Shown one piece after another: positions 4,036-25,300 of a DNA stretch of 27,616 bases. The notes beneath the pieces were generated by a model. It saw nothing but the letters and a program-made list of their open reading frames with translations. It made no database searches and was not told where the DNA came from. The DNA is from a virus (taxonomy: Duplodnaviria > Caudoviricetes): positions 1 to 27,616 of IMG/VR virus record IMGVR_UViG_3300026258_000013; one strand, written 5' to 3'. Both the position numbers and the translations under genes were made by a program. Positions within the stretch are counted from its first letter, which is position 1; each line of letters starts with the position of its first letter.

Positions 4036-4449
4036 ATGGCGAAAAAAAGATTTAAAGATACAGGCGTTGGAAAATTTTTATTAGAAAAAATTCCTAACGT
4101 TGTTGGTGCAATAGCAGGTGACACACCAGTAGGTTCTGTTATACAAGCTATAATTGGCGGGTCTGATATGTCAGAAGCGGATAAAAAAATTGCACTTAAA
4201 AAATTAGATATTGAAAGAGCTGAGATAGACGGCACTACTAGACGTTGGGTTGCGGATGCAACTTCAGGGTCGTGGTTAGCAGCTAATGTTAGGCCTTTAA
4301 CATTAGTGTTTTTAACAATAAGTTATGTAGCTGGGTGGTATATGGGCTACCCATTAGATTCAATTACAGGCTTACTTACTATTGTTATTGGTGGCTATTT
4401 CGGTTCAAGAGGGGTAGAAAAAGTTTTTGGAAACAGTAAACACAAATAA
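4036..4449 (+). CDS. Holin (3TM/GTA-type holin-like)
   Basis: Motifs SWLAANVRPLTLVFL and LLTIVIGGYFGSRGVEK, two C-terminal hydrophobic helices, upstream of the endolysin. Confidence 0.7.
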   Translation: MAKKRFKDTGVGKFLLEKIPNVVGAIAGDTPVGSVIQAIIGGSDMSEADKKIALKKLDIERAEIDGTTRRWVADATSGSWLAANVRPLTLVFLTISYVAGWYMGYPLDSITGLLTIVIGGYFGSRGVEKVFGNSKHK

Positions 4450-4607
4450 TGAACGACTTAAAAATTTACGGCATAAACGTCGGAGCAGTTGCGTTTTCAG
4501 CGCTGCCGAACATAAACCCCACTTTGCAAACCGTAGTATTGGTTATGACAATAATATATACAGGGATGAATATTTATATGAAATTAAAAGATAGAAATAA
4601 ACAATGA
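4449..4607 (+). CDS. Small membrane protein (52 aa), not in the ORF track; possible holin/antiholin
   Basis: MNDLKIYGINVGAVAFSALPNINPTLQTVVLVMTIIYTGMNIYMKLKDRNKQ. The start overlaps the holin stop (TAATG) and the stop overlaps the endolysin start (ATGA). Two hydrophobic segments and a basic C-terminus. Confidence 0.75.
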   Translation: MNDLKIYGINVGAVAFSALPNINPTLQTVVLVMTIIYTGMNIYMKLKDRNKQ

Positions 4608-4948
4608 AATACTTTGAAGAGTCCGAATTTAACGGCTTTGAAATGATGGATAAAAAACTTCTTTCAATGCTAGACAGCTTGCGAGAAGTATATGGCTATC
4701 CAATAAAAATTACATCTGACTACAGAAGCCCGGAGCATCCTATAGAGGCTTCAAAAAAACAGCCCGGTGAACACGCATATGGTGCAGCAGTTGACATTGA
4801 GAGTGTTGGGGGCGAAAAAACATTTAAATTAGTTAAAGCCGCAATTGAAGTTGGTTTTACTAGAATAGGTATTAGCAGGAAAAGAGGGTTTATGCATTTA
4901 GGTATTGGGTACCCCGGCGCACCTAATACCACTATATGGACATACTAA
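4604..4948 (+). CDS. Endolysin, peptidase M15 family (Zn-dependent)
   Basis: ITSDYRSPEH...GEHAYGAAVDI...FMHLGI gives the R, H-x6-D and H ligand pattern of M15 peptidases. Confidence 0.8.
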   Translation: MKYFEESEFNGFEMMDKKLLSMLDSLREVYGYPIKITSDYRSPEHPIEASKKQPGEHAYGAAVDIESVGGEKTFKLVKAAIEVGFTRIGISRKRGFMHLGIGYPGAPNTTIWTY

Positions 4949-5765: not shown

Positions 5766-5991
5766 AGCTGCTGAAAATTCAATTAATGAATTAATAAAGG
5801 TAATGAATAAGAAAATGGATCCAGATGAACTTGATCCTGAAAAAGTAAAAATATCAGCCTCAGCTTATAGGCTCGCGATGGAAGATGCTATTGCGCTTTT
5901 ACAAAGAGTAGAAGAAATAAATGAAATGATGAACGAATCACCAAAGACTGCTAAGGATAGTTTTTATGGTGTAGAAAACAGAGCTAAATAA
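5731..5991 (+). CDS. Putative terminase small subunit
   Basis: 86-aa helical protein directly upstream of TerL and coupled to it (TAATG). Assignment is positional. Confidence 0.5.
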   Translation: MDIKKKRKLILEAAENSINELIKVMNKKMDPDELDPEKVKISASAYRLAMEDAIALLQRVEEINEMMNESPKTAKDSFYGVENRAK

Positions 5992-8228
5992 TGTATAAAC
6001 AAAGTCTATATGCTATACACTCTGCGCATTTGTCTACTAAAAGTGTAAAAAGAAATAATAAGCTAAAAAATTACAAGTACGGTTATAATGACGATCTTGA
6101 TTGTGTAGTAATAAGCAAAGATGGTACCATAGGTGAAATTTTTGAAATACAAGGATTACGTATTGCATTACCCGCAATACCAAAAAAAGTGTATTCAAAT
6201 AGCGAAAAACCTGAAGATCAAGTTTTTAAGCAAACCTTAAAACCCGCTACGCTATCAAAAATTAAATCGATACATGATTTTCAATTATATCCAGATGACA
6301 TTAAAGAAAAATATTACGAATATATTAATTCGGAGTTTGACCGCCGCAATGATGGTTACTGGTTTATGTGCAATGGCACAGCAACCTACATCACGGGAAC
6401 ACATTATATGTATCTCAACTGGACAAAAATTGATGTTGGCGCACCTGAATTTAGACAATCAAACAAAATATTCTTTTATTTTTGGGAAGCTTGCAAAGCG
6501 GATTACAGGTGTTATGGAATGTGCTACCTCAAAAATAGACGGAGTGGATTCTCCTTTATGGCGAGCGCAGAAACAGTTAACCAAGCTACAATATCAAAAG
6601 ACGCAAGGTTTGGGGTACTATCAAAGAGTGGGGGAGACGCAAAAAAAATGTTTACCGACAAGATTGTACCTATATCGATCAACTACCCATTCTTCTTTAA
6701 ACCAATACAAGATGGGATGGAAAGACCAAAAACTGAACTTTCCTACAAAATACCATCTAAAAGACTTACAAGAAATTCACTCAAAGCAACTGATCAAGAT
6801 GAAGTACAAGTTGGTGAAGGGCTGGACACTACAATTGACTGGAAGAACACGGGTGACAACTCCTACGATGGGGAGAAACTAAAATTACTAGTCCATGACG
6901 AATCTGGCAAATGGGAAAGACCTGATAATATACTAAACAACTGGCGCGTTACTAAAACTTGTTTGAGATTAGGCGCTAAAGTTGTTGGAAAGTGTATGAT
7001 GGGATCAACATCAAACGCTTTAGACAAAGGAGGGGATAATTTTAAAAAGTTATACTATGACTCAAAAGTCGAAAATAGAAACCGTAATGGGCAGACTGCT
7101 AGTGGATTATACTCTTTGTTCATACCTATGGAATGGAACTATGAGGGATTCATTGATAAATATGGATTTCCTGTATTCGATAGTCCAGAAAAACCTGTCG
7201 AAGGAATTGACGGGGAGCTTATCAGATATGGAGTTATCGATCATTGGGAGAATGAAGCAGATGGACTCAAAGAAAATAATGACGCTTTAAACGAGTTTTA
7301 TAGACAATTTCCAAGAAGCGAAAAGCACGCGTTTAGAGACGAAATAGAAAAGTCTTTATTCAATCTAAATAAAATATACGAACAAATAGATTTCAATGAA
7401 GAAATGACAATGCAGGGTTATGTAACCCGCGGGTCGTTTAGCTGGAAAAATGGAGTTAAAGATTCTGAAGTAGAATTTTATCCAAATAAAACAGGTAGAT
7501 TTAAATTATCCTGGATTCCGCCGGTTGAAATGCAAAATAACATAATAGTAAAAAACGGTATTAAACACCCAGGCAATAAAGATTTAGGTGCATTTGGTTG
7601 TGATAGCTATGATATTAGCGGTACAACAGACGGCAGCGGATCTAATGGGGCACTTCATGGGCTTACTACGTTTAGTATGCTAGCTGATGTGCCGTCTAGC
7701 CAATTCTTTTTAGAATACGTTGCTAGGCCACAAACAGCAGAAATATTTTTTGAAGATGTGCTTATGGCAATGATATTTTACGGAATGCCAATACTTGCCG
7801 AAAATAACAAACCTAGATTATTATATCATATCAAAAGAAGAGGTTATAGAGGGTTTTCAATGAACAGACCCGACCGATCTCGCAGAAAGTTATCTATAAC
7901 AGAAAAAGAATTAGGTGGTATACCTAATACTTCAGAAGACATAAGACAAGCTCATGCAGCTGCAATTGAAAGCTATATTGAAACCCATGTTGGGTTAAAA
8001 GAAAATGGTGATTGTGGCAAAATGTACTTTCAGAGAACATTAGAGGACTGGGCTAAATTTGATATTAATAAAAGAACAAAGTTTGATGCGTCTATAAGCT
8101 CTGGGCTTGCCATAATGGCATGCCAAAGACATTTATATGCATCCAAAACAACGAGAGAAGTTAAGAAAATAGACTTTGGATTTTCAAAATACAATAACCA
8201 AGGTTCAAAAAGTAAAATAATACAATAG
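5991..8228 (+). CDS. terL: Terminase large subunit
   Basis: 745 aa. Walker A-like LKNRRSGFS, Walker B LLVHDESGK, coupling motif GSTSN, RNase H-like nuclease start FGCDSYD, C-terminal FDASISSGLA. Confidence 0.9.
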   Translation: MYKQSLYAIHSAHLSTKSVKRNNKLKNYKYGYNDDLDCVVISKDGTIGEIFEIQGLRIALPAIPKKVYSNSEKPEDQVFKQTLKPATLSKIKSIHDFQLYPDDIKEKYYEYINSEFDRRNDGYWFMCNGTATYITGTHYMYLNWTKIDVGAPEFRQSNKIFFYFWEACKADYRCYGMCYLKNRRSGFSFMASAETVNQATISKDARFGVLSKSGGDAKKMFTDKIVPISINYPFFFKPIQDGMERPKTELSYKIPSKRLTRNSLKATDQDEVQVGEGLDTTIDWKNTGDNSYDGEKLKLLVHDESGKWERPDNILNNWRVTKTCLRLGAKVVGKCMMGSTSNALDKGGDNFKKLYYDSKVENRNRNGQTASGLYSLFIPMEWNYEGFIDKYGFPVFDSPEKPVEGIDGELIRYGVIDHWENEADGLKENNDALNEFYRQFPRSEKHAFRDEIEKSLFNLNKIYEQIDFNEEMTMQGYVTRGSFSWKNGVKDSEVEFYPNKTGRFKLSWIPPVEMQNNIIVKNGIKHPGNKDLGAFGCDSYDISGTTDGSGSNGALHGLTTFSMLADVPSSQFFLEYVARPQTAEIFFEDVLMAMIFYGMPILAENNKPRLLYHIKRRGYRGFSMNRPDRSRRKLSITEKELGGIPNTSEDIRQAHAAAIESYIETHVGLKENGDCGKMYFQRTLEDWAKFDINKRTKFDASISSGLAIMACQRHLYASKTTREVKKIDFGFSKYNNQGSKSKIIQ
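6274..6882 (+). CDS. Candidate nested (+1 frame) gene inside terL; putative exported protein
   Basis: 202 stop-free codons in a frame normally rich in stops; synonymous codon pattern avoids NTA+purine; signal-peptide-like N-terminus ending AMA|QQ. Alternative start at 6295. Confidence 0.55.
   Translation: MIFNYIQMTLKKNITNILIRSLTAAMMVTGLCAMAQQPTSREHIICISTGQKLMLAHLNLDNQTKYSFIFGKLAKRITGVMECATSKIDGVDSPLWRAQKQLTKLQYQKTQGLGYYQRVGETQKKCLPTRLYLYRSTTHSSLNQYKMGWKDQKLNFPTKYHLKDLQEIHSKQLIKMKYKLVKGWTLQLTGRTRVTTPTMGRN
7057..7290 (+). CDS. Second candidate nested (+1 frame) gene inside terL
   Basis: 77 aa, same codon-avoidance pattern, AT-rich start context tttaaaaagttatactATG with A at -3. Confidence 0.4.
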   Translation: MTQKSKIETVMGRLLVDYTLCSYLWNGTMRDSLINMDFLYSIVQKNLSKELTGSLSDMELSIIGRMKQMDSKKIMTL

Positions 8229-8231
8229 AAA

Positions 8232-10616
8232 ATGGCAGAAGCTACAGGACAAGTTACCCAATTTCCCAGCCAATCGGTTGACGATGCTACGAAGGCTAGC
8301 AGAGACTACGGAATGGAAGTGGCACGTGGTATACAAAACGAATGGTTTAGAAAATCGTCTGGCACGGGGAGGTTCGTACAAAATCAACGAGACTTCCACA
8401 AACTAAGATTATATGCTAGGGGTGAACAATCTGTTCAGAAATATAAGGATGAATTTTCAGTAAATGGCGATTTATCTTATCTTAACTTAGATTGGAAACC
8501 AGTGCCAATTATACCTAAGTTTGTAGATATAGTTGTTAATGGCATGCAAGATAGGCTATTTACGGTTAAAGCTTTTGCTCAGGATCCTACATCTGTTAAA
8601 GAAAGAACAGATTTTGTAGAAAGGATTGTGGAGGACATGCAGACACAAGAAATTTTAGCTTCTATCGAGCAAAATATGAATGTTGATGTTAGCAATACGC
8701 CAAAAGAGGAGTTGCCTTCTACTACAGAAGAACTAGAGCTCCATATGCAGGTAAGCTACAAGCAAGGTATAGAGATAGCGGAAGAACAAGCTATAGACAA
8801 TACTTTTAAAAGGAATGATTACCCTGAAATTAAGAAAAGGATAGACTACGACCAAACAGTCTTAGGAATATCCGCTGTTAAACATGGATTTAACAATACA
8901 GATGGTATAAAGCTAGAATATGTTGATCCTTCAAATTTAGTATATTCGTATACAGAAGACCCTAACTTCCAAGATGTATATTATTTTGGGGAAATAAAAC
9001 AAATAAAAACAAACGAGCTTAAAAAACAATTTCCAGGATTATCTGATGAGGAATTCAACGAAGCGGTTAAAAAATCTAGTAATTATAATAATTATGACTA
9101 CGCTACTGTAGAGGCTAATGACAATAATGATTCCAACACTTTAACGGTGTTGTATTTTAATTGGAAAACATGGGAAAAAAGCGTATATAAAATAAAAGAA
9201 ACATCTACTGGAGCTAAAAAAGCAATAAAAAAAGATGATAAATTTAATCCTCCAAAAGATCAAAGAGCTAGATTTGAAAGGATAGCGCAGGCAAGAGAAA
9301 CTATATATGAAGGGGTGATGGTTCTTGGAGCTAATAAACTTCTTAAATGGGAAAAAGCGACAAATATGGTTCGCCCCGAGTCTAACGCTAATATGGTAAT
9401 GATGAATTACGTGGTTAGCGCGCCTAGAATGTATAAAGGCAAAATAGAAAGTCTTGTTAGTAGAATGGTAACCTACGCTGATTTAATTCAGCTTACACAC
9501 TTAAAGCTACAACAAGTAATACAAAGAATGACACCATCTGGTGTTTATTTAGATGCTGATGGACTAGCTGAAATAGATTTAGGTAACGGAACAAGTTATA
9601 ATCCTCAAGAGGCTTTAAATTTATATTTTCAAACCGGTTCTGTTATAGGAAGATCTATGACGGTTGACGGTGATATGAACCCCGGAAAAATACCAATTCA
9701 AGAATTGCCTGGTGGGGGTGGGCAACAATCAACTTTATTAATACAAGCGTATAATTATTATTTAAATATGATACGTGATGTAACTGGTTTAAACGAGGCA
9801 AGAGATGGGTCTGATCCAGACCAATATGCTTTAGTTGGTGTCCAAAAACTTGCAGCAGCAAATTCTAATACGGCTACAAGACATATATTACATAGTTCAC
9901 TTTACACTACTACAGCATTAGCTGAGGCAATATCAATTAGAATTAAAGACGTTCTTGAATTCCACCCGCAAAGAGACGCTATGATTACGGGAATAGGAAG
10001 ATTTAGTGTAGGGTCGTTAAAAGAGATGCAAAACTTACATCTGCATGACTTTGGTATATTTTTAGAACTAGACCCTGACGAAGACGAAAAACAGCTTGTA
10101 GAGCAAAACATACAAATGGCTTTGTCTAGAGATCAAATACTGTTAGAAGATGTTATTGACATTAGGCAAATAAAAAATACAAAATTAGCAAATCAGTTAT
10201 TAAAGTATAGAAGAGGTAAAAAAGAACAAATAGACCAAACCAAAGCGGAAAGAAATATAGCTGCACAATCAGAAGCAAACGCTCAAGCGGCTCAAGCTGC
10301 TGAAATGGCAAAAGCTCAAGCTGAAACTATTAAGGTTGAGGCTAAGATGAAGTTAGCAGAAGCCCAATCTAATTTTGACGTTAAGAAATTAGAAAGTGAA
10401 GCTATAACTAAGAAAGAGTTAATGCAATTTGAGTTTGATCTAAATATGAAATTAAAAGAAATGGAGCTTGACGCTAAAAAAGAAATAGCTAATAGCAAAG
10501 TATCTTTATCGGACATTAGTGGTCCACCATCTTCAGCTAAGCCGCAAAAATCATTTGAATCTAGTGGCAACGATGTTTTAGGTGGGATTGATCTTAGCAG
10601 GTTTGAACCTAGATAA
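8232..10616 (+). CDS. Portal protein
   Basis: 794 aa directly after terL. YLNLDWKPVPIIPKFVDIVVNG, IRDVTGLNEARDGS and a long C-terminal coiled coil (barrel) are typical of podovirus portals. Confidence 0.85.
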   Translation: MAEATGQVTQFPSQSVDDATKASRDYGMEVARGIQNEWFRKSSGTGRFVQNQRDFHKLRLYARGEQSVQKYKDEFSVNGDLSYLNLDWKPVPIIPKFVDIVVNGMQDRLFTVKAFAQDPTSVKERTDFVERIVEDMQTQEILASIEQNMNVDVSNTPKEELPSTTEELELHMQVSYKQGIEIAEEQAIDNTFKRNDYPEIKKRIDYDQTVLGISAVKHGFNNTDGIKLEYVDPSNLVYSYTEDPNFQDVYYFGEIKQIKTNELKKQFPGLSDEEFNEAVKKSSNYNNYDYATVEANDNNDSNTLTVLYFNWKTWEKSVYKIKETSTGAKKAIKKDDKFNPPKDQRARFERIAQARETIYEGVMVLGANKLLKWEKATNMVRPESNANMVMMNYVVSAPRMYKGKIESLVSRMVTYADLIQLTHLKLQQVIQRMTPSGVYLDADGLAEIDLGNGTSYNPQEALNLYFQTGSVIGRSMTVDGDMNPGKIPIQELPGGGGQQSTLLIQAYNYYLNMIRDVTGLNEARDGSDPDQYALVGVQKLAAANSNTATRHILHSSLYTTTALAEAISIRIKDVLEFHPQRDAMITGIGRFSVGSLKEMQNLHLHDFGIFLELDPDEDEKQLVEQNIQMALSRDQILLEDVIDIRQIKNTKLANQLLKYRRGKKEQIDQTKAERNIAAQSEANAQAAQAAEMAKAQAETIKVEAKMKLAEAQSNFDVKKLESEAITKKELMQFEFDLNMKLKEMELDAKKEIANSKVSLSDISGPPSSAKPQKSFESSGNDVLGGIDLSRFEPR

Positions 10617-10649: not shown

Positions 10650-11876
10650 ATGGCAGAATGGAAAATTAAAGGTGCTGCTGAAGACGTTGAGCAAAAGTCA
10701 GCACAAGAGCAAGAACAAGCTGTTTTAGATAAAGCAGTTGAAGAGGGCAAAATAGAGCCTGAAGCCGCCGGCAAAGAGGCCGACGAGGTACCAAAAATTA
10801 ACTTAGACGAATTAAACAAAAAAGAGGACACCACTCAAGAACAAGAAGCAGAAGAGGTTCCTGTTGAAGATGTTCCTAAAGAGAACAAAGAAGCGGAACA
10901 AAAGCCACAAAAACAAGCCGAGGCTGAAGAAACAGAAAAGCAAGACTCGCCGCTTGAACTTATTAAAGACGAAGAAGAAGTGGTTGAGGCTGACCAGCCT
11001 AAAGTGGATGAAAGAGCTGCTAAAGTAAACGAGCAACCGAAACCTGCAGAACCAGAAGTTGTACTTCCGGAGAATGTTGATAAGCTTGTTAAGTTTATGG
11101 AGGAAACAGGTGGTAGTGTTGAAGACTTTGTTTTATTAAATAGAGATCTATCAAAATACAATGATGGCGATCTATTGCGAGAATATTATAAACAATCTAA
11201 ACCTTGGGACACACAAGAAATTTCTGAATATATGGAAGACAATTTTTCATATAGCGAAGAAGAAGACGACCCAAGAGAAATACGTTCTAAAAAAAGAGCG
11301 TTTAAAGAAGAGTTATTTAATGCTAAAAAGTTTTTAGAAGGAAACAAAGAGAAATATTATGCTGATCTCAAGTTGAAGAAGCAAACAGATATTCCTCAGG
11401 AGTACCAAGAAGCTTTAGAGTATTATAACACATATCAACAGAACGCTGAATCAAGCAAACAACTTACTGAAAGTTTTTTACAAAAAACAGATAGTGTGTT
11501 TAGTCAAGATTTTAAAGGTTTTGATTTTCAAGTTGGAGACAATAAGTACCGTTATAAAGTCAATAATATTAATGACACAAAAACGCAACAATCTGATATT
11601 AACAATTTTGTAAAACAATTTTTAGGTGACGACGGCCAAATTAATGACGCCAAGGGTTACCATAAAGCATTATTTACTGCGAGAAACGCAGATAAGTTAG
11701 CTGAACATTTTTATGAGCAAGGCCGTGCCGATGCTCTCCGCCAATCCGCTAAGGAGGCTAAAAATATAAATATGGACCCAAGGCAAGAGGGTGTTATTAA
11801 AACAGCTTCAGGCCAAAAGTTCAAAGTTGTTTCTGGTGATTCTAGTTCTAAACTAAGAATGAAACTAAGACAATAA
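10650..11876 (+). CDS. Putative capsid scaffolding protein
   Basis: Highly acidic, low-complexity N-half, helical C-half, basic C-terminus; lies between portal and major capsid. Confidence 0.65.
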   Translation: MAEWKIKGAAEDVEQKSAQEQEQAVLDKAVEEGKIEPEAAGKEADEVPKINLDELNKKEDTTQEQEAEEVPVEDVPKENKEAEQKPQKQAEAEETEKQDSPLELIKDEEEVVEADQPKVDERAAKVNEQPKPAEPEVVLPENVDKLVKFMEETGGSVEDFVLLNRDLSKYNDGDLLREYYKQSKPWDTQEISEYMEDNFSYSEEEDDPREIRSKKRAFKEELFNAKKFLEGNKEKYYADLKLKKQTDIPQEYQEALEYYNTYQQNAESSKQLTESFLQKTDSVFSQDFKGFDFQVGDNKYRYKVNNINDTKTQQSDINNFVKQFLGDDGQINDAKGYHKALFTARNADKLAEHFYEQGRADALRQSAKEAKNINMDPRQEGVIKTASGQKFKVVSGDSSSKLRMKLRQ

Positions 11877-15863: not shown

Positions 15864-18464
15864 ATGGCAGAAAGCAAAAGAACATTCCAATCCGCAAGGA
15901 TGGATAAAGACATAGACGATAGGCTATTAAAACCCGGAAGCTTTAGAGATGGGCTTAATATATCTATTGATACGTCTGAAGATGCTAATGTAGGAGCTAT
16001 TGAAAACCTAAAAGGTAATGAATTAATAGCTAACCAAAATATATACGGGCTTTCAGAATCAAGCAATCCTAACGCACAAGTCGTAGGTTCTTATGCTCAT
16101 CCCGAAGAAGAAAAAATATATTATTTCGTTACAGGAGATCTTGTTGACGGAATATTTGAATATGATGCCGAAAATGGTGATATTAGTACAATAATAGTTG
16201 ACGGTAGAAAAAGCTTAGAATTAGAAAAATCAGAATTAACATTTTTAGGGTCAAAATCTAGTGCAACAATAAAACAAGACGGTACAATAGTGCCTAGTTC
16301 CAATATAGGGGGCGTTATATCTTTAACACCAGCTTTTCCTGCTAACACAACTGGATCTGCAATTTCACAAGTTGTTGCTTTAAAGGTTCAAGTCCCCAGA
16401 GGATATGCAAACGCAGGAAAATTTGTTTCCGGCGAAGTTAATGCTAGTCAACCATCAATAGGATCGCCAGAGGTGCAAACAAAAGCTGCTACTCGTATAG
16501 ATAATACTAATGGGACATTAAACGGCCTTTTAACTCATGATAGCGTTAATGTTACTTCGCAAGGTTTTTATTATGGATATAACACCAGCGGAACGGCTTT
16601 AACAATTTCCGAACTAAAAAACGGAGGTACTGGTATAACAAGATTTACCGTTTCAAGCTCTAGTATAAAACAAAGATTTAAAGCTAATATTGGCTCTCTT
16701 GTTGCCAATAAGCTAATAAGTTTTGCAGCTTTTGCAACTAATTCAATAGGAACAACAGATGGATTAGTAAAAACATTTTCAACAAGAAACACTGTATTGT
16801 CTTTAACCTCCTTGTCGTTTGCTTCCAGCACAATAGGAAGCGCGGGTGGGACTGCTTTTTTTACAGTCTCAGGTGTTGTGGGCAGTACTTATACTCTTGC
16901 GGGTACAGTCGGAGCCACCGCACCATCTGGCCCTTTTACTATGGGATCCAGCGGTTCTATTACACATTCAATTACAATAGGTGCTCAAGGAACGGGAGAC
17001 CCTCAAAGAACACCCACTGTTACTGTAACTCCTACAGGCTCTACAGCATTTTTGCCAACAAGCCTACAAGCTTTTGATACAATTACACAAGCGGCAGGAA
17101 CAGCGCAAACGTATAATTACTCATTAACACCATCGGCGTCTATAGGTAATTCAACATTAAAACAAACGGCTCTTTCTACCGGAAGTGCTTATACAGGGTT
17201 CTCAACAACACAAACCGCTGGATATTCAGCAACAGAAACGTTTTATATATTCCCTAATGCAGGTTACGAATTTGCAAACACTTCCTCTGTTTCTATAACA
17301 GGCTTGCCCTCGTGGGCTAGCGCTAGTGTTTCGCAAAACACAAATGGGGATAATCATACATATGTAAAAGTAGATATAGCTATATCTAATACGCCTACTA
17401 ACAATGATAGCGTAACTTACAATATAGCTGCGACCCCTACACAGGTAGTTACTACTTGGTCTGCTGGTTTATGGGCAGCCTCTACAAACCCTTCGGTAGC
17501 TATTAGTCCAACATCAGATAGTTCAATAAGCTTTACTGGGACTGGTACTAAAACTGCGTCTGACACAATTTCAATAACAGACAGTAGCAAATTTGTTTCC
17601 GGCGTTAATTCTACCACTAAAAATTCAACTTACGGTGGTGATATAATAACTGTTAGCTATTCAGGTGTGCCAACTAGTACAGGTGGCAGTTTAACTGCAA
17701 ACTTTAGCATTGCTATTCCTGCCGCTCAAAGAAAAAGCATTACATATTCTAGTGCTCCGATAGCTATTAGTTTAGCGGGCGCTACAGCAGCAAGTAATCA
17801 TACTTTAACATTTAATAGTGTTGGAAGTAATTTTGTAGCTGGGGTAGGCGCTAACTTGTTAACTAGTCATACTATTTCTTTAGCACCTGGTTCTACACAA
17901 CAAATTTCTGTTAATGTTCAACCAAATGACGGTTATAAGCTTACAGACGCAAATGCTTCTAGCGCAACGAATCTTCCTAGTTGGGTTACTTTAGTAAGTG
18001 AAACAGTAACTGATTATGGTATTTATAGTCATATTACCTATGTCTTTAATGTTACAGGACAAAGTGGGACGACTAGCGGATCTATAGACTTTAACGCAAC
18101 TCCTACGGCTGCTACAATGACTTGGAGTAATAAATTAGCTGTAGCTAGCCCTGGCGCGACTGGTATATCAGTAAGCGTAATAGATGATGGAACTTCATAC
18201 CAACATACTGGGCCCACGGGCAGTACAGATGTAAAATTCAGTTATAGTGGGGGAGTCCCAAGTTCAGTAACATACAGCGAGCCTTATAGTCAAACTGGTA
18301 CTTTTGCAAGTTCATTAAGCAACGGGGGTATAACTATATATCCAGCGAATCATCCTATCACTCCAAATCAAATATGGTGTTCTATAATTATAGACAATAA
18401 TTATAATAACGATGTTACAACACCGTCTAATTTTGCGCCAGTTAGGCTAACGTTAAATACTTAA
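15864..18464 (+). CDS. Tail stabilization/nozzle protein N-terminal fragment fused to Ig-like (FN3/BACON-like) arm
   Basis: About aa 1-115 match the start of this phage group's nozzle protein (RMDKDIDDRLL...RDGLNI...GAIENLKGN...KIYYFV...IFEYD). The remainder is Ser/Thr-rich beta-sandwich repeats. Confidence 0.65.
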   Translation: MAESKRTFQSARMDKDIDDRLLKPGSFRDGLNISIDTSEDANVGAIENLKGNELIANQNIYGLSESSNPNAQVVGSYAHPEEEKIYYFVTGDLVDGIFEYDAENGDISTIIVDGRKSLELEKSELTFLGSKSSATIKQDGTIVPSSNIGGVISLTPAFPANTTGSAISQVVALKVQVPRGYANAGKFVSGEVNASQPSIGSPEVQTKAATRIDNTNGTLNGLLTHDSVNVTSQGFYYGYNTSGTALTISELKNGGTGITRFTVSSSSIKQRFKANIGSLVANKLISFAAFATNSIGTTDGLVKTFSTRNTVLSLTSLSFASSTIGSAGGTAFFTVSGVVGSTYTLAGTVGATAPSGPFTMGSSGSITHSITIGAQGTGDPQRTPTVTVTPTGSTAFLPTSLQAFDTITQAAGTAQTYNYSLTPSASIGNSTLKQTALSTGSAYTGFSTTQTAGYSATETFYIFPNAGYEFANTSSVSITGLPSWASASVSQNTNGDNHTYVKVDIAISNTPTNNDSVTYNIAATPTQVVTTWSAGLWAASTNPSVAISPTSDSSISFTGTGTKTASDTISITDSSKFVSGVNSTTKNSTYGGDIITVSYSGVPTSTGGSLTANFSIAIPAAQRKSITYSSAPIAISLAGATAASNHTLTFNSVGSNFVAGVGANLLTSHTISLAPGSTQQISVNVQPNDGYKLTDANASSATNLPSWVTLVSETVTDYGIYSHITYVFNVTGQSGTTSGSIDFNATPTAATMTWSNKLAVASPGATGISVSVIDDGTSYQHTGPTGSTDVKFSYSGGVPSSVTYSEPYSQTGTFASSLSNGGITIYPANHPITPNQIWCSIIIDNNYNNDVTTPSNFAPVRLTLNT

Positions 18465-22350: not shown

Positions 22351-25300
22351 ATGGCAGAGAAAAAAACACCATTTGAAAATATTTTTCCGTATTTAAGCTA
22401 TAGGTGGAAATACGACGACGGTGAATATTCGCCTTATGCCCCTTTTACAGAGGTGCAATTTTTATCAAAAATAGCTGATGATGAAGTGGAAAAGTTTGAA
22501 AATGGCTTTAATATATTTATGTCTAATGACCTAGAGTCTATCAATATTAATTATTTACCTCTAGGCGGGCCTGATGTTGTAGCTGTTGATATATTATATA
22601 CAGAATCTATTTCTTCAACTGTTTATGTTTTAAAAACAATTAATATACCTGAAGAAGATAGAATAAAAGAATATTATACTGATATAAATATAAACAAAAG
22701 AACTTTTGGTATAGCTTTGCCTAATTCGCAATTGAATAGACATTTTGACAGTGTGCCTAGAAAAGCCAAAGCTCAAGAGTTTACGGCTAATAGGCTCATT
22801 TATGGTAATTATTTACACAAGTTTGATCAAGAAGATTTAGACAATAACGGCATGGACGGGCCAATACGTATAGAGCCTTACGCAAAAAGTATTTTTTCCG
22901 AAAGAGCCTCAGGTCCTTCTGTAAAAACGAATAGAGACTATGATATTGGTGTTGTTTATATGGATCGTTTTGGAAGACAAGGGGGTTTGCTTACAGACAA
23001 AGCAAAACCAGGGTCAGAAAACAGCGGAGGATCTTCAATAAAAACAGATTTTACTTCTAACCGCAGAATAAAATTAGCAGCCTGCATAAAGTCTTCGCCC
23101 CCGAGCTGGGCAAAGTATTATAGGTATTATATAAAAGATGTTTCAACTTCATTTTTTAATTTAACAGCCTATAACACGTATATAGACGGAAGCGATGGGG
23201 ACACAAACTCCCCTAACGCATATTTGCAATTTAATTCCAAAGATAGGAACAAAGTAACTGAAGATTCTTTTTTAATACCAAGAAGACAAAATATTACTCA
23301 AGGGCTAGGGCAAATATCAGTGCCAGGACTAGGAAACACGTTTGGTATTGTTTATAATACTTTTAGTAGGTTACCTGTTTTAGCTATAGAAAATGAAGCC
23401 CCAGATACGGTTAAAGCGCAAGTACTAGAAAGAACAAACATTCCTATTGGCCTTAGCATTAGCGATGACTATTCTGAAATAGTTACCGGTTTTAACACAA
23501 CAAACGGAACGATTGCTCAGAATGATACTGTATTTTTTATAAAAGATAAAGTAAGAACCTGGGATGAACAAGGCATTGTTGGTAAAATAAATGCATATTT
23601 AACCAGTCAAGATCCTAGCGCAACATTATTTAATACAAAAAGCGGCACCGGAACCCAAACTGTAACTGTAAGTGGGTATGGGGAGAGGCTTGCTTTAGAG
23701 TTTGAATCAAACCTATATGTAAATAGTAAAAAAGTATTAGTTGATGAAATAGCATATGCTGGAAGCGGCGGGAGCCAGTCCCAAAGAAATGTTTTTAAAT
23801 TTACCTTAAGTAATCAAATAAACGATGCGGGTGAAACAATTTCAGCTACGGGGATAAACAATCAACCAGGTAACGGAGGGTTTACAATGAACGCCTCTGG
23901 GGAAGACGCTAGAATAAGATTTTCAAAATTTGGCATCTCAGAAGACGGTAAAAATAAATTAAAAGGTTCATTTTTTGTTAAAGTTCCAAGGGCAACCAAA
24001 TCGTTGTCTAGCAATTCAAGAGTTGGTACTACGGATATACCTATAGGACAAACTACGTTTAAAGATAATGGAGATGTAAAAGACTTAAATTTTGTTGATT
24101 TTGAAACAGAGCAAGGGGAAGACTCTAATTTAAATTTGTACTGGGAAAGTTCTAAAACTTTTAAGATTTCTGATGATGAAAACCTAAACGACCATGGTGA
24201 AATTAATGACATCCGATGGTCAAATTGTATAGCGACCATTGGAGGTGCTACAAACGAAATATTTTTAGAATCTACTAATATACAAGATAAATTTAATTCT
24301 ACTTCACTTGTAAAAAGCATAAGGGTCAATACTCCTGAAATTAATTTTAACGAAGAAAGAAGAAAAACTGGATTAATATTTTCAGGACTATATAACTCAA
24401 GAACAGGCATTAATGAACTTAATCAATTTAGTTTAGCTGATGGCATAACAAAAGATTTGGAACCTAATTATGGAGGTATTCAAAAACTACATGCTTTAGA
24501 CACCAACTTAGTTACGTTTACTGAGGACAAAGTGTTTAAAGTGTTAGCAGACAAAGATGCTTTATTTAATGCAGACGAGGGGGTTAATGTAACCGCTACA
24601 AATCTAGTGTTGGGACAAGCTATGACTTATCAGGCTAATTATGGTATAAGTACACACCCTGAATCTTTTGCTTTTGGTGGTGGTAATATATATTTTACTG
24701 ATGCTAAGCGTGGTGCTGTAATGCAGCTCACCCCTGCTAATGGCCAATTATTTCCAATTAGCAGTAACGGTATGAGCAACTTTTTTAGGGATAGAATTGG
24801 CACTGCTAATAAGCTAATAGGGGCCTATGATAGAACTAAAAGGACCTATGTGGTATCAATGCAAGGGTACAATGAATTAGATCCCGCTATTGGCTCTGAA
24901 ACATTTCCTAACGAAATAACGAACGCAACATTAGGATATAGTTTTCGCTCCAAAAGTTGGACAAGTAGGTATTCCTTTATACCCGAAACTGGATTAACTT
25001 TAAATAATAAGTTTTACACTTTTAAAGGGGGTAAAATCTATTTGCATAATTCAGATACATCGGGAAGAAATAATTTTTATGGTGTGCAGTATAATTCTGA
25101 AGTGGAGATAATTTTTAATGATAACCCCACATACATATCAGATTATTTATCTATGAATTACGAGGGCAGCCAAAATTGGGAAATAGTAAGTATACTAGCG
25201 GATCAAGAAGAAAATATTATAACAAACGCTAGGATAATGGATAATTTATGGTTCTTTAAAGAAGGTAAATATCACGCCTCAATTGTTGGAACCGTACCTG

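Follow-up and report, generated by a model that had tools for sequence, protein, structure and literature searches.

The window analysed here is a whole 27,616-base stretch of marine phage DNA, i.e. positions 1-27,616 of the virus record IMGVR_UViG_3300026258_000013. Its terminase large subunit gene (terL; 5991..8228, + strand, frame 0; phrog_6681, E 3e-165) carries, on sequence comparison, a second reading frame that is overprinted on it and kept open in most relatives. This open reading frame (ORF), ORF1 (6274..6882, + strand, +1 frame of terL, 202 residues), appears to be a real feature, the function of which we infer; with a probability of roughly 0.4, it specifies an exported, predicted-disordered, basic protein that helps to break the outer membrane at lysis in phages without a separate spanin. 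An earlier note on this DNA had proposed a hidden, overprinted 202-residue gene with an export signal; run-length tests and openness in homologues support that gene, and the overprinting, the export signal and an A-x-A site before Gln all stand, but the reading was incomplete, e.g. a second nested frame, ORF2, was missed.

The open frame and its history in terL

Sites in both nested frames are given on a q scale, where q is the codon number of terL in the window. ORF1 occupies q95-297, with an alternative start at 6295, and lies within a stop-free +1 run of 213 codons (6241-6879). In the permutation test that the earlier note had called for, a run of this length was reached in 0/5000 codon resamplings and in 0/5000 synonymous permutations, the 99th percentiles of +1 run length under these two nulls being 105 and 109 codons, respectively; the probability of ORF1 having no stop is 1.3e-7. 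Of 90 gene-by-frame tests in the window, terL +1 alone sits at the permutation floor, the next best giving p=0.015. The hand counts of NTA codons in the earlier note proved exact, i.e. 12/13 before a pyrimidine, 0/16 before a purine and 7/9 just upstream, for comparison with a share of 550/1015 in the other genes of the window. The ORF1 frame is not an assembly error, because several DNA runs yield contigs that are nearly identical to terL and have 0 indels. The frame runs across the K-N-R-R-S-G stretch of terL (q181) and stops just short of L-L-V-H-D-E (q299); we take these two stretches to be Walker A and Walker B.

The start of ORF1 is preceded by an A/T-rich context (6260..6273, + strand) with the same 9-mer and spacing as found before gene 514, AATTAAATC-N5-ATG being present upstream of both 514 and 6274, as had been claimed. 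On a scale where real starts score 3.3+/-3.1 and background scores -4.3+/-3.7, this context scores -1.4, with a mean of +1.0 in 17 relatives; an ATG is present at q95 or q102 in 20/20 members of the window's clade. The product would very probably arise by initiation within the late terL mRNA, at 6274. Separately, an AAA codon at q105 (~6303-6305) is near-invariant in carriers of ORF1 (1 change vs 7.7 expected), but not in non-carriers, and may be part of the initiation region for a start at q109 in other clades.

Three homologue sets, which partially overlap and which were picked by terL protein rather than by ORF1, give bimodal +1 stop counts. In the first, of 80 terL homologues, 44 are without a +1 stop in q113-224, one has a single stop, and 35 have 2-7, where 4.6 are expected in each. 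The ORF1 core is open in 43/48 of set 2 (chosen on C-terminal terL, 48 of its 78 new loci covering the region), and in 69/76 of set 3 (79 loci without the window's own contig, 76 of which cover the region). The close homologues behave as the earlier note had anticipated, 15/15 at >=90% identity being open over q95-296, and all five annotated outgroup records have 4-11 +1 stops. A tree of 147 terL sequences (95% identity being the thinning threshold) requires the status of ORF1 to change 8 times, at least 7 of these changes being forced by well-supported branches; the simplest reading of this history is a single gain with repeated losses, the deep nodes being weak. A side observation from these comparisons is that the L248 terL appears to be recombinant, with a window-type 5' part and an L108-type 3' part.

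Codon statistics were derived from 111 sequences after thinning, with 80 loci found through ORF1 itself added; these comprise 76 carriers (20 in the window's clade and 56 'others'), 33 non-carriers, and two that were left out, with one stop each. The end of ORF1 in the carriers falls anywhere in q225-331, with 0/76 ending before q225. The frame of the proposed 202-residue gene is real, but only its first ~130 codons are always kept.

The leader and mature part of ORF1

The predicted signal peptide comprises residues 1-35 (6274..6378, + strand), with Cys32 at 6367-6369 and A-M-A at 6370-6378, then Gln36. AlphaFold2 models residues 2-35 as a helix (predicted local distance difference test (pLDDT) values of 70-86 by block over residues 1-30) and no other helix with confidence. 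Judged from codon choice, the leader is under selection. The third-position T share is 0.61 over q108-123 in the window's clade vs 0.38-0.39 in other groups, and 0.69 over q127-139 in the 56 other carriers vs 0.44 in non-carriers; T-ending codons are over-represented in the leader and under-represented directly after it. Relative to its position in the other carriers, the leader is displaced upstream by 14 codons in the window's clade, the Met-to-Cys distance being 31 in both cases (q95-q126 in the window's clade and q109-q140 in the others). A Met codon of terL dictates its first Cys but not the residues on either side. Thus, the T-C-S stretch after q140 requires TAC (q141), TTG/CTG and CAG, which are present in 49, 46 and 40 of the 56 carriers vs 11, 7 and 8 of the 33 non-carriers; ACT at q135 is present in 55/56 carriers vs 12/33 non-carriers, and the rare TTC codon giving G-S-C occurs in 9/9 basal clade members. 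The hydrophobic core that had been pointed out is no better than chance in this genome alone (P=0.47), but is supported by the homologues; the Ala-Ala pair encoded by CGC CGC, to which weight had been given, is not conserved in relatives.

The leader reads G-S-C in 55 and G-L-C in 20 of 75 distinct clade members. The G-L-C forms have Ala three residues past the Cys in 20/20 cases and A-x-A with Gln next in 19/20, whereas A/V-x-A-Q is found in 2/55 G-S-C forms, both close kin of the window's subclade. A single G-L-C clade is rejected (p-AU 4e-23) on a tree of 34 rows (10 of them G-L-C) built outside the leader, where 5 changes, 4 of them forced, are needed; one G-L-C row looks recombinant, leaving at least 3 origins of G-L-C, and older recombination is also conceivable. 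In our reading, a lipoprotein leader has repeatedly given way to a signal peptidase I site that exposes Gln, in keeping with the Q-rule for Bacteroidota signal peptidase I substrates, as described in the accessible part of PMC5837995. ORF1 matches a Q-rule substrate by pattern, with a basic n-region, a hydrophobic core, small residues at -3/-1 and Gln at +1. Because the change from G-S-C to G-L-C/A-x-A-Q is repeated, cleavage between A-x-A and Gln is supported and the lipid anchor seems optional. The Gln-type signal peptide of the earlier note thus holds for this lineage but is a derived state, most relatives being of lipoprotein type. Sec export is likely, with the product lipid-anchored in most relatives and, in this lineage, cut between A-M-A and Gln to give a free periplasmic chain.

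The always-kept mature part of ORF1 (to q224; 6379..6663, + strand) has non-preferred codons fixed at q141, 161, 176 and 178 in the 56 other carriers, and includes a weakly conserved M-E-C-A-T-S-K stretch (6514..6534, + strand); it is followed by a dispensable C-terminal tail (6664..6882, + strand), the ends of which vary and the synonymous rate of which is 1.3-1.4 of expectation. The reduced synonymous variation that the earlier note had expected is not seen in the mature part (1.0-1.43 of expectation) and, within ORF1, is confined to q127-144 (0.72-0.76). C-ending codons that make the product hydrophilic are, however, enriched over q143-224 in 20/20 and 54/56 carriers vs 11/33 non-carriers, and this shift takes mean hydropathy from +0.3 to -0.4 past the leader. 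With pLDDT under 50 for residues 34-202 and a predicted template modelling score (pTM) of 0.19 for the whole AlphaFold2 model, the mature part is predicted to be disordered and loosely constrained. The composition is basic (isoelectric point 10.1; 32 Lys+Arg vs 9 Asp+Glu), with a hydrophobic moment of ~1.3-1.5 at residues 67-108. A C-terminal transmembrane segment is absent from the window's ORF1 (KD15 0.78), and is present in at most 1/72 members, two mis-started rows having been set aside. On balance we favour a mode of action in which the first 90-100 residues of the mature chain work through their bulk properties and not through a fixed fold.

Database searches gave little. For the window's ORF1 and ORF2 there was no family match in PHROGs or NCBIfam, nor for ORF1 in Pfam (E 0.01-0.05), and a Pfam search on 72 and 83 nested-ORF members gave only scattered matches, of 1-2 members each; the ESM Atlas gave no usable match for ORF1 and, for ORF2, eukaryotic clusters without a name at 0.92, which were set aside. 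No standalone copy was found among 16 sequences examined from 200 + 13 protein-database matches, longer and shorter length classes being unsearched; the 16 are the nested frame itself or terL/+1 chimeras, the latter probably arising from indel errors. A full-text literature search, in which listings were judged by title and abstract opening, with subscription journals mostly outside its reach and supplements excluded, returned nothing relevant on a nested gene in these terminases.

ORF2, a second nested frame

ORF2 (7057..7290, + strand, q356-433, 77 residues, alternative start 7087) is likewise in the +1 frame of terL, has no signal peptide and, as judged from synonymous rates, is under stronger constraint than ORF1. 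The lowest synonymous rate of terL is at q345-410, which holds ORF2, and in the conserved core (q363-396; 7078..7179, + strand) all four groups show 0.45-0.65 of the expected rate, i.e. below any window past q435, with 0/20,000 random site sets as low. NTA before a purine is found in 0/9 cases over ORF2, the probability of no stop, calculated post hoc, being 4.3e-4. Among the 56 other carriers, 10 of 21 sites with fixed non-preferred codons are in the ORF2 region vs 2 in the last 310 codons, and q363, 375 and 390 vary at the first base with the third kept constant, the pattern that a +1 protein would require. In q345-409 there are 0 +1 stops vs 44.7 expected in the 20 clade members, and 8 vs 90.5 and 3 vs 48.9 in the other two groups; in a control clade, ORF2 is broken in 7/7 members. 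The frame extends to q433 in the window's clade, and the q356 start scores near real starts.

Other accounts of the ORF2 region were considered. The RNA consensus index over ORF2 is ~0.2 in two groups and 0.71 in the window's clade, where it may just reflect high identity; a shared RNA structure was rejected, none being found in two of the three groups, though a nucleotide element is still conceivable. Entry to ORF2 by frameshifting was considered in view of the 11/56 other carriers that have no ATG at q345-367, but, since ten of these keep an open frame with GTG at q347, a normal start suffices. Production of ORF1 and ORF2 as one protein via recoded stops was likewise discarded, ORF1 ending on TAA and a TGA being forced at q336 in all three groups.

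Of 147 sequences, 96 have both ORFs, 37 ORF2 alone, 6 ORF1 alone and 8 neither, so the two are not obligate partners. AlphaFold2 gives two low-confidence helices for ORF2 (pTM 0.29), with no Foldseek match in the PDB at E 0.001. ORF2 likely specifies a small helical protein of the cytoplasm that is distinct from ORF1 and has its own history of gain and loss; a role in lysis timing or packaging control is a guess. As an aside, the distantly related cultured phage L164 (Cellulophaga phi38:1) has an 87-codon +1 open frame, Met first, exactly at the ORF2 position (q345-431), which may be an ORF2 counterpart or may be due to chance.

Lysis genes, rival explanations and the role of ORF1

The gene order in the window is holin-like genes, M15 endolysin, a GroES-like gene, a small gene, terL, portal and virion genes. 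The lysis cassette (4036..4948, + strand; phrog_3427, phrog_894, PF08291; phrog_920 E 5e-4), which is on the same strand as terL and ~1-2 kb upstream of it, comprises two holin-like genes (4036..4449 and 4449..4607, both + strand) and an M15 peptidase endolysin (4604..4948, + strand); ORF1 is thus on the same strand as, and close to, the holin-endolysin genes. A hydropathy and Cys screen of the window's genes gave no spanin-like gene in the cassette. The nearest cultured phages by terL identity are Flavobacterium Elemovirus (45%) and Cellulophaga phages (37%), from which a Bacteroidota host is inferred.

The preference for an accessory role at the outer membrane over the rival explanations considered below comes from a comparison of endolysin neighbourhoods, which, excluding G002-G004 (where this neighbourhood is unexamined), by eye have u-spanin-like genes in 5/7 ORF1-less genomes vs 0/6 carriers. 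On its sequence features, the 145-residue gene directly past the endolysin in the ORF1-less L045 (395-832), which has a lipobox and a C-terminal transmembrane segment but no PHROG match, is a clear u-spanin candidate. The ORF1-less G005 and phi18:3 have, near the endolysin, a gene with an N-terminal signal and a C-terminal transmembrane segment, and the ORF1-less Elemovirus and Manatee Spring records have proteins with an N-terminal transmembrane segment and a beta-strand-like end, which are possible u-spanin-like genes. No such gene was found in the window or in the carriers G006, G009 and G010 (100% complete), and G007 and G008 (81-83%). For two other families of flavobacterial phages, u-spanins are reported in the accessible part of PMC8776804, in which none is mentioned for Gundel or Calle. 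Upstream gene content (96 carriers, 22 non-carriers) did not reveal a cluster cleanly replacing ORF1. Of the functions suggested by the earlier note, an outer-membrane lysis role thus has modest comparative support, but for a lysis regulator or an exclusion protein there is no positive evidence. The benefit of ORF1 may tentatively be put as weakening of the outer membrane at lysis.

Several observations weigh against this proposal. The endolysin tally is small and made by eye, and three of its five positive genomes are distant outgroups. A u-spanin-like gene was not found in the ORF1-less L194 and G001 (98% complete), so the largest ORF1-less clade is unexplained; a stricter lipoprotein screen (loci with at least 2.9 kb upstream) gave 1/26 ORF1-less vs 1/94 carrier loci, and in the carriers L109 and L115 the endolysin adjoins an 84-residue gene, both ends of which are hydrophobic. 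There was no sign of selection for positive charge or helical amphipathicity, net charge per residue (0.05-0.08) being no higher than in non-carriers, and, because neither property exceeds that of non-carriers, the basic character of ORF1 comes free with the frame. The leader of this genome is the weakest among those with a correctly placed start (KD15 1.66), the start contexts of the other carriers are near background, with 4/56 lacking an ATG, and the contigs over terL in the small-share RNA runs X15-X17 and X20 do not permit frame, strand or level to be read.

Comparison with known systems gives partial likenesses. T7 carries two +1 ORFs within its gene 19 (19.2 and 19.3), which the accessible part of PMC8365609 calls hypothetical with a potential lysis function. 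The parallel drawn in the earlier note is good for the two-ORF layout within terL but does not extend to homology, the hhalign probabilities being 0.8% and 0.1%; 19.2 and 19.3 are of 85 and 57 residues, whereas ORF1 is of 202 with an export signal. Since the phage groups are unrelated, the layout is convergent. Lambda Rz1 and T7 18.7 (inside 18.5) are, like ORF1, nested out of frame near lysis genes with a lipoprotein-type leader (PMC6139136, in its accessible part). By contrast, the host gene of ORF1 is terL rather than an i-spanin gene, there is no obligatory partner, its lipobox is replaced in this lineage by A-x-A before Gln, and it is much longer and repeatedly lost. The o-spanin lipobox consensus given in the same source is [LVI][ASTVI][GAS]C, to which T-G-L-C in the window and [IT]-G-S-C or T-C-T-C/I-C-T-C in relatives come near without conforming. 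A u-spanin of the T1 gp11 type is, like ORF1, an exported envelope protein, and ORF1 tends to be found in genomes without a u-spanin-like gene, but it has no C-terminal transmembrane segment and its C terminus is variable. The disruptin gp28 of phage phiKT, a cationic peptide by which a spanin-less phage disrupts the outer membrane according to the available portion of 10.1101/515445, resembles ORF1 in being cationic; however, gp28 is a 56-residue amphipathic helix, whereas ORF1 has an export leader and is predicted to be disordered, with charge and amphipathicity not above those of non-carriers. T5 Llp, a phage lipoprotein acting in the periplasm, is early, compact, acylation-dependent and encoded beside a receptor-binding gene, as described in what is accessible of 10.64898/2026.03.26.714494, and none of these properties fits ORF1. 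ORF1 lacks the defining features of o-spanins, u-spanins and Llp, and is not a classical spanin.

Llp is nonetheless the model for a rather unlikely explanation, in which the ORF1 product is exported and, by blocking the phage receptor from within the periplasm, serves in superinfection exclusion or progeny protection. Predicted export, fast evolution, non-essentiality and repeated loss would all be in accord with this, and Llp probably shields progeny from receptor in debris, according to the portion of 10.64898/2026.03.26.714494 that is accessible, a role that would suit late expression. However, Llp has a compact, disulfide-held fold and needs acylation for a functional complex, whereas mature ORF1 has the low pLDDT values noted above, its anchor has seemingly been dropped on several branches, and no receptor-binding gene adjoins it. 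A role for ORF1 as o-spanin in a two-component spanin with separated genes, the partner being a 91-114 residue coiled-coil protein with an N-terminal transmembrane segment near the relatives' lysis genes, is improbable to a greater degree. The lipobox-like G-S-C in 55/75 clade members, the presence of the coiled-coil gene in G006, G008, G009 and G010, and the commonness of separated systems (118/677 phages in the accessible part of PMC6139136) favour this explanation, but the same gene is present in the ORF1-less G001 and G002, the window has no linked, co-occurring i-spanin, the coiled-coil protein has only weak matches to proteins of unknown function or holins, and Leu precedes the Cys in 20/75 clade members, this genome included.

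It may also be that translation or export as a process is what keeps the frame open, e.g. in tuning TerL output or in loading Sec, Lgt or Lol, with the product itself of little importance, in line with a mature sequence evolving at or above the synonymous rate and a leader under the strongest constraint. We regard this as improbable, in that stops shortly past the leader, at q147, 149, 180 and 190-201, are common in non-carriers but avoided in carriers, and several mature-region codons are fixed; because of these two observations, ~90 residues seem to be needed. Finally, there may be no protein, and conserved ATPase residues, codon preference or a nucleotide element may keep the frame open as a side effect. 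Met and Trp codons of terL do indeed force several of the Cys, Gly and Trp residues of the +1 product, and relatives have long +1 frames in other conserved enzymes too. However, the same amino acid context yields 2-7 stops in 35/80 homologues, NTA is shunned only before purines, T-ending codons go from enriched to depleted directly past the leader, and no shared RNA structure was found over ORF1, making this explanation very improbable. The probability that remains beside these explanations and the proposed lysis role goes to other envelope functions.

Some further observations concern the relatives. Near the lysis genes of G001 (53381-56839), G006 (49361-52142) and G010 (~65340-67200) lies a cluster encoding exported proteins, i.e. 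a transmembrane coiled-coil protein, a secreted protein that is thioredoxin-like and has Gln following its signal, and a protein of 346-398 residues with a beta-barrel-like end, together with, in G001, a 608-residue lipoprotein-like gene. The large ORF1-less clade gave no match to the M15 and amidase queries; a 155-residue phrog_1501 protein (L327:19268-19732, from G001) is, as a guess from its position, the likely endolysin there. In G007 (L346) and G008 (L347), with terL identities of 96-97%, long +1 frames occur in other core enzymes outside the window, namely ribonucleotide reductase alpha (122 codons) and beta (108) and primase-helicase (141), and in G007 thymidylate synthase (107), with p<=0.005-0.015 (200 permutations; 22 and 20 ORFs tested). 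Other long alternative frames in the window itself, at 16742-17074 (+2, p=0.015) and, antisense, at 9144-9482 (p=0.015), 10815-11132 (p=0.015) and 23862-24410 (p=0.14), are not significant over 90 tests.

A bolder and doubtful proposal is that ORF1 represents a new type of outer-membrane lysis factor, i.e. an exported, unstructured polypeptide with an optional lipid anchor, which arose by overprinting of the terminase ATPase, replaces the u-spanin in a large group of marine Bacteroidota phages and, in tandem with the more conserved ORF2, is part of a genome-wide +1 coding layer in core enzymes. ORF1 is a well-sampled natural case of the birth, remodelling and loss of a gene inside a highly conserved phage gene, the remodelling including a leader moved by 14 codons, a repeated lipoprotein-to-Gln-signal switch and at least 7 state changes. 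The two-ORF layout repeats, in an unrelated terminase, that of the unexplained T7 19.2/19.3. In a marine phage group that is widespread, ~12,000 stored stretches matching the terL patterns, envelope genes are overlooked by standard annotation, and ORF1 is a testable candidate for how spanin-less Bacteroidota phages may cross the outer membrane.

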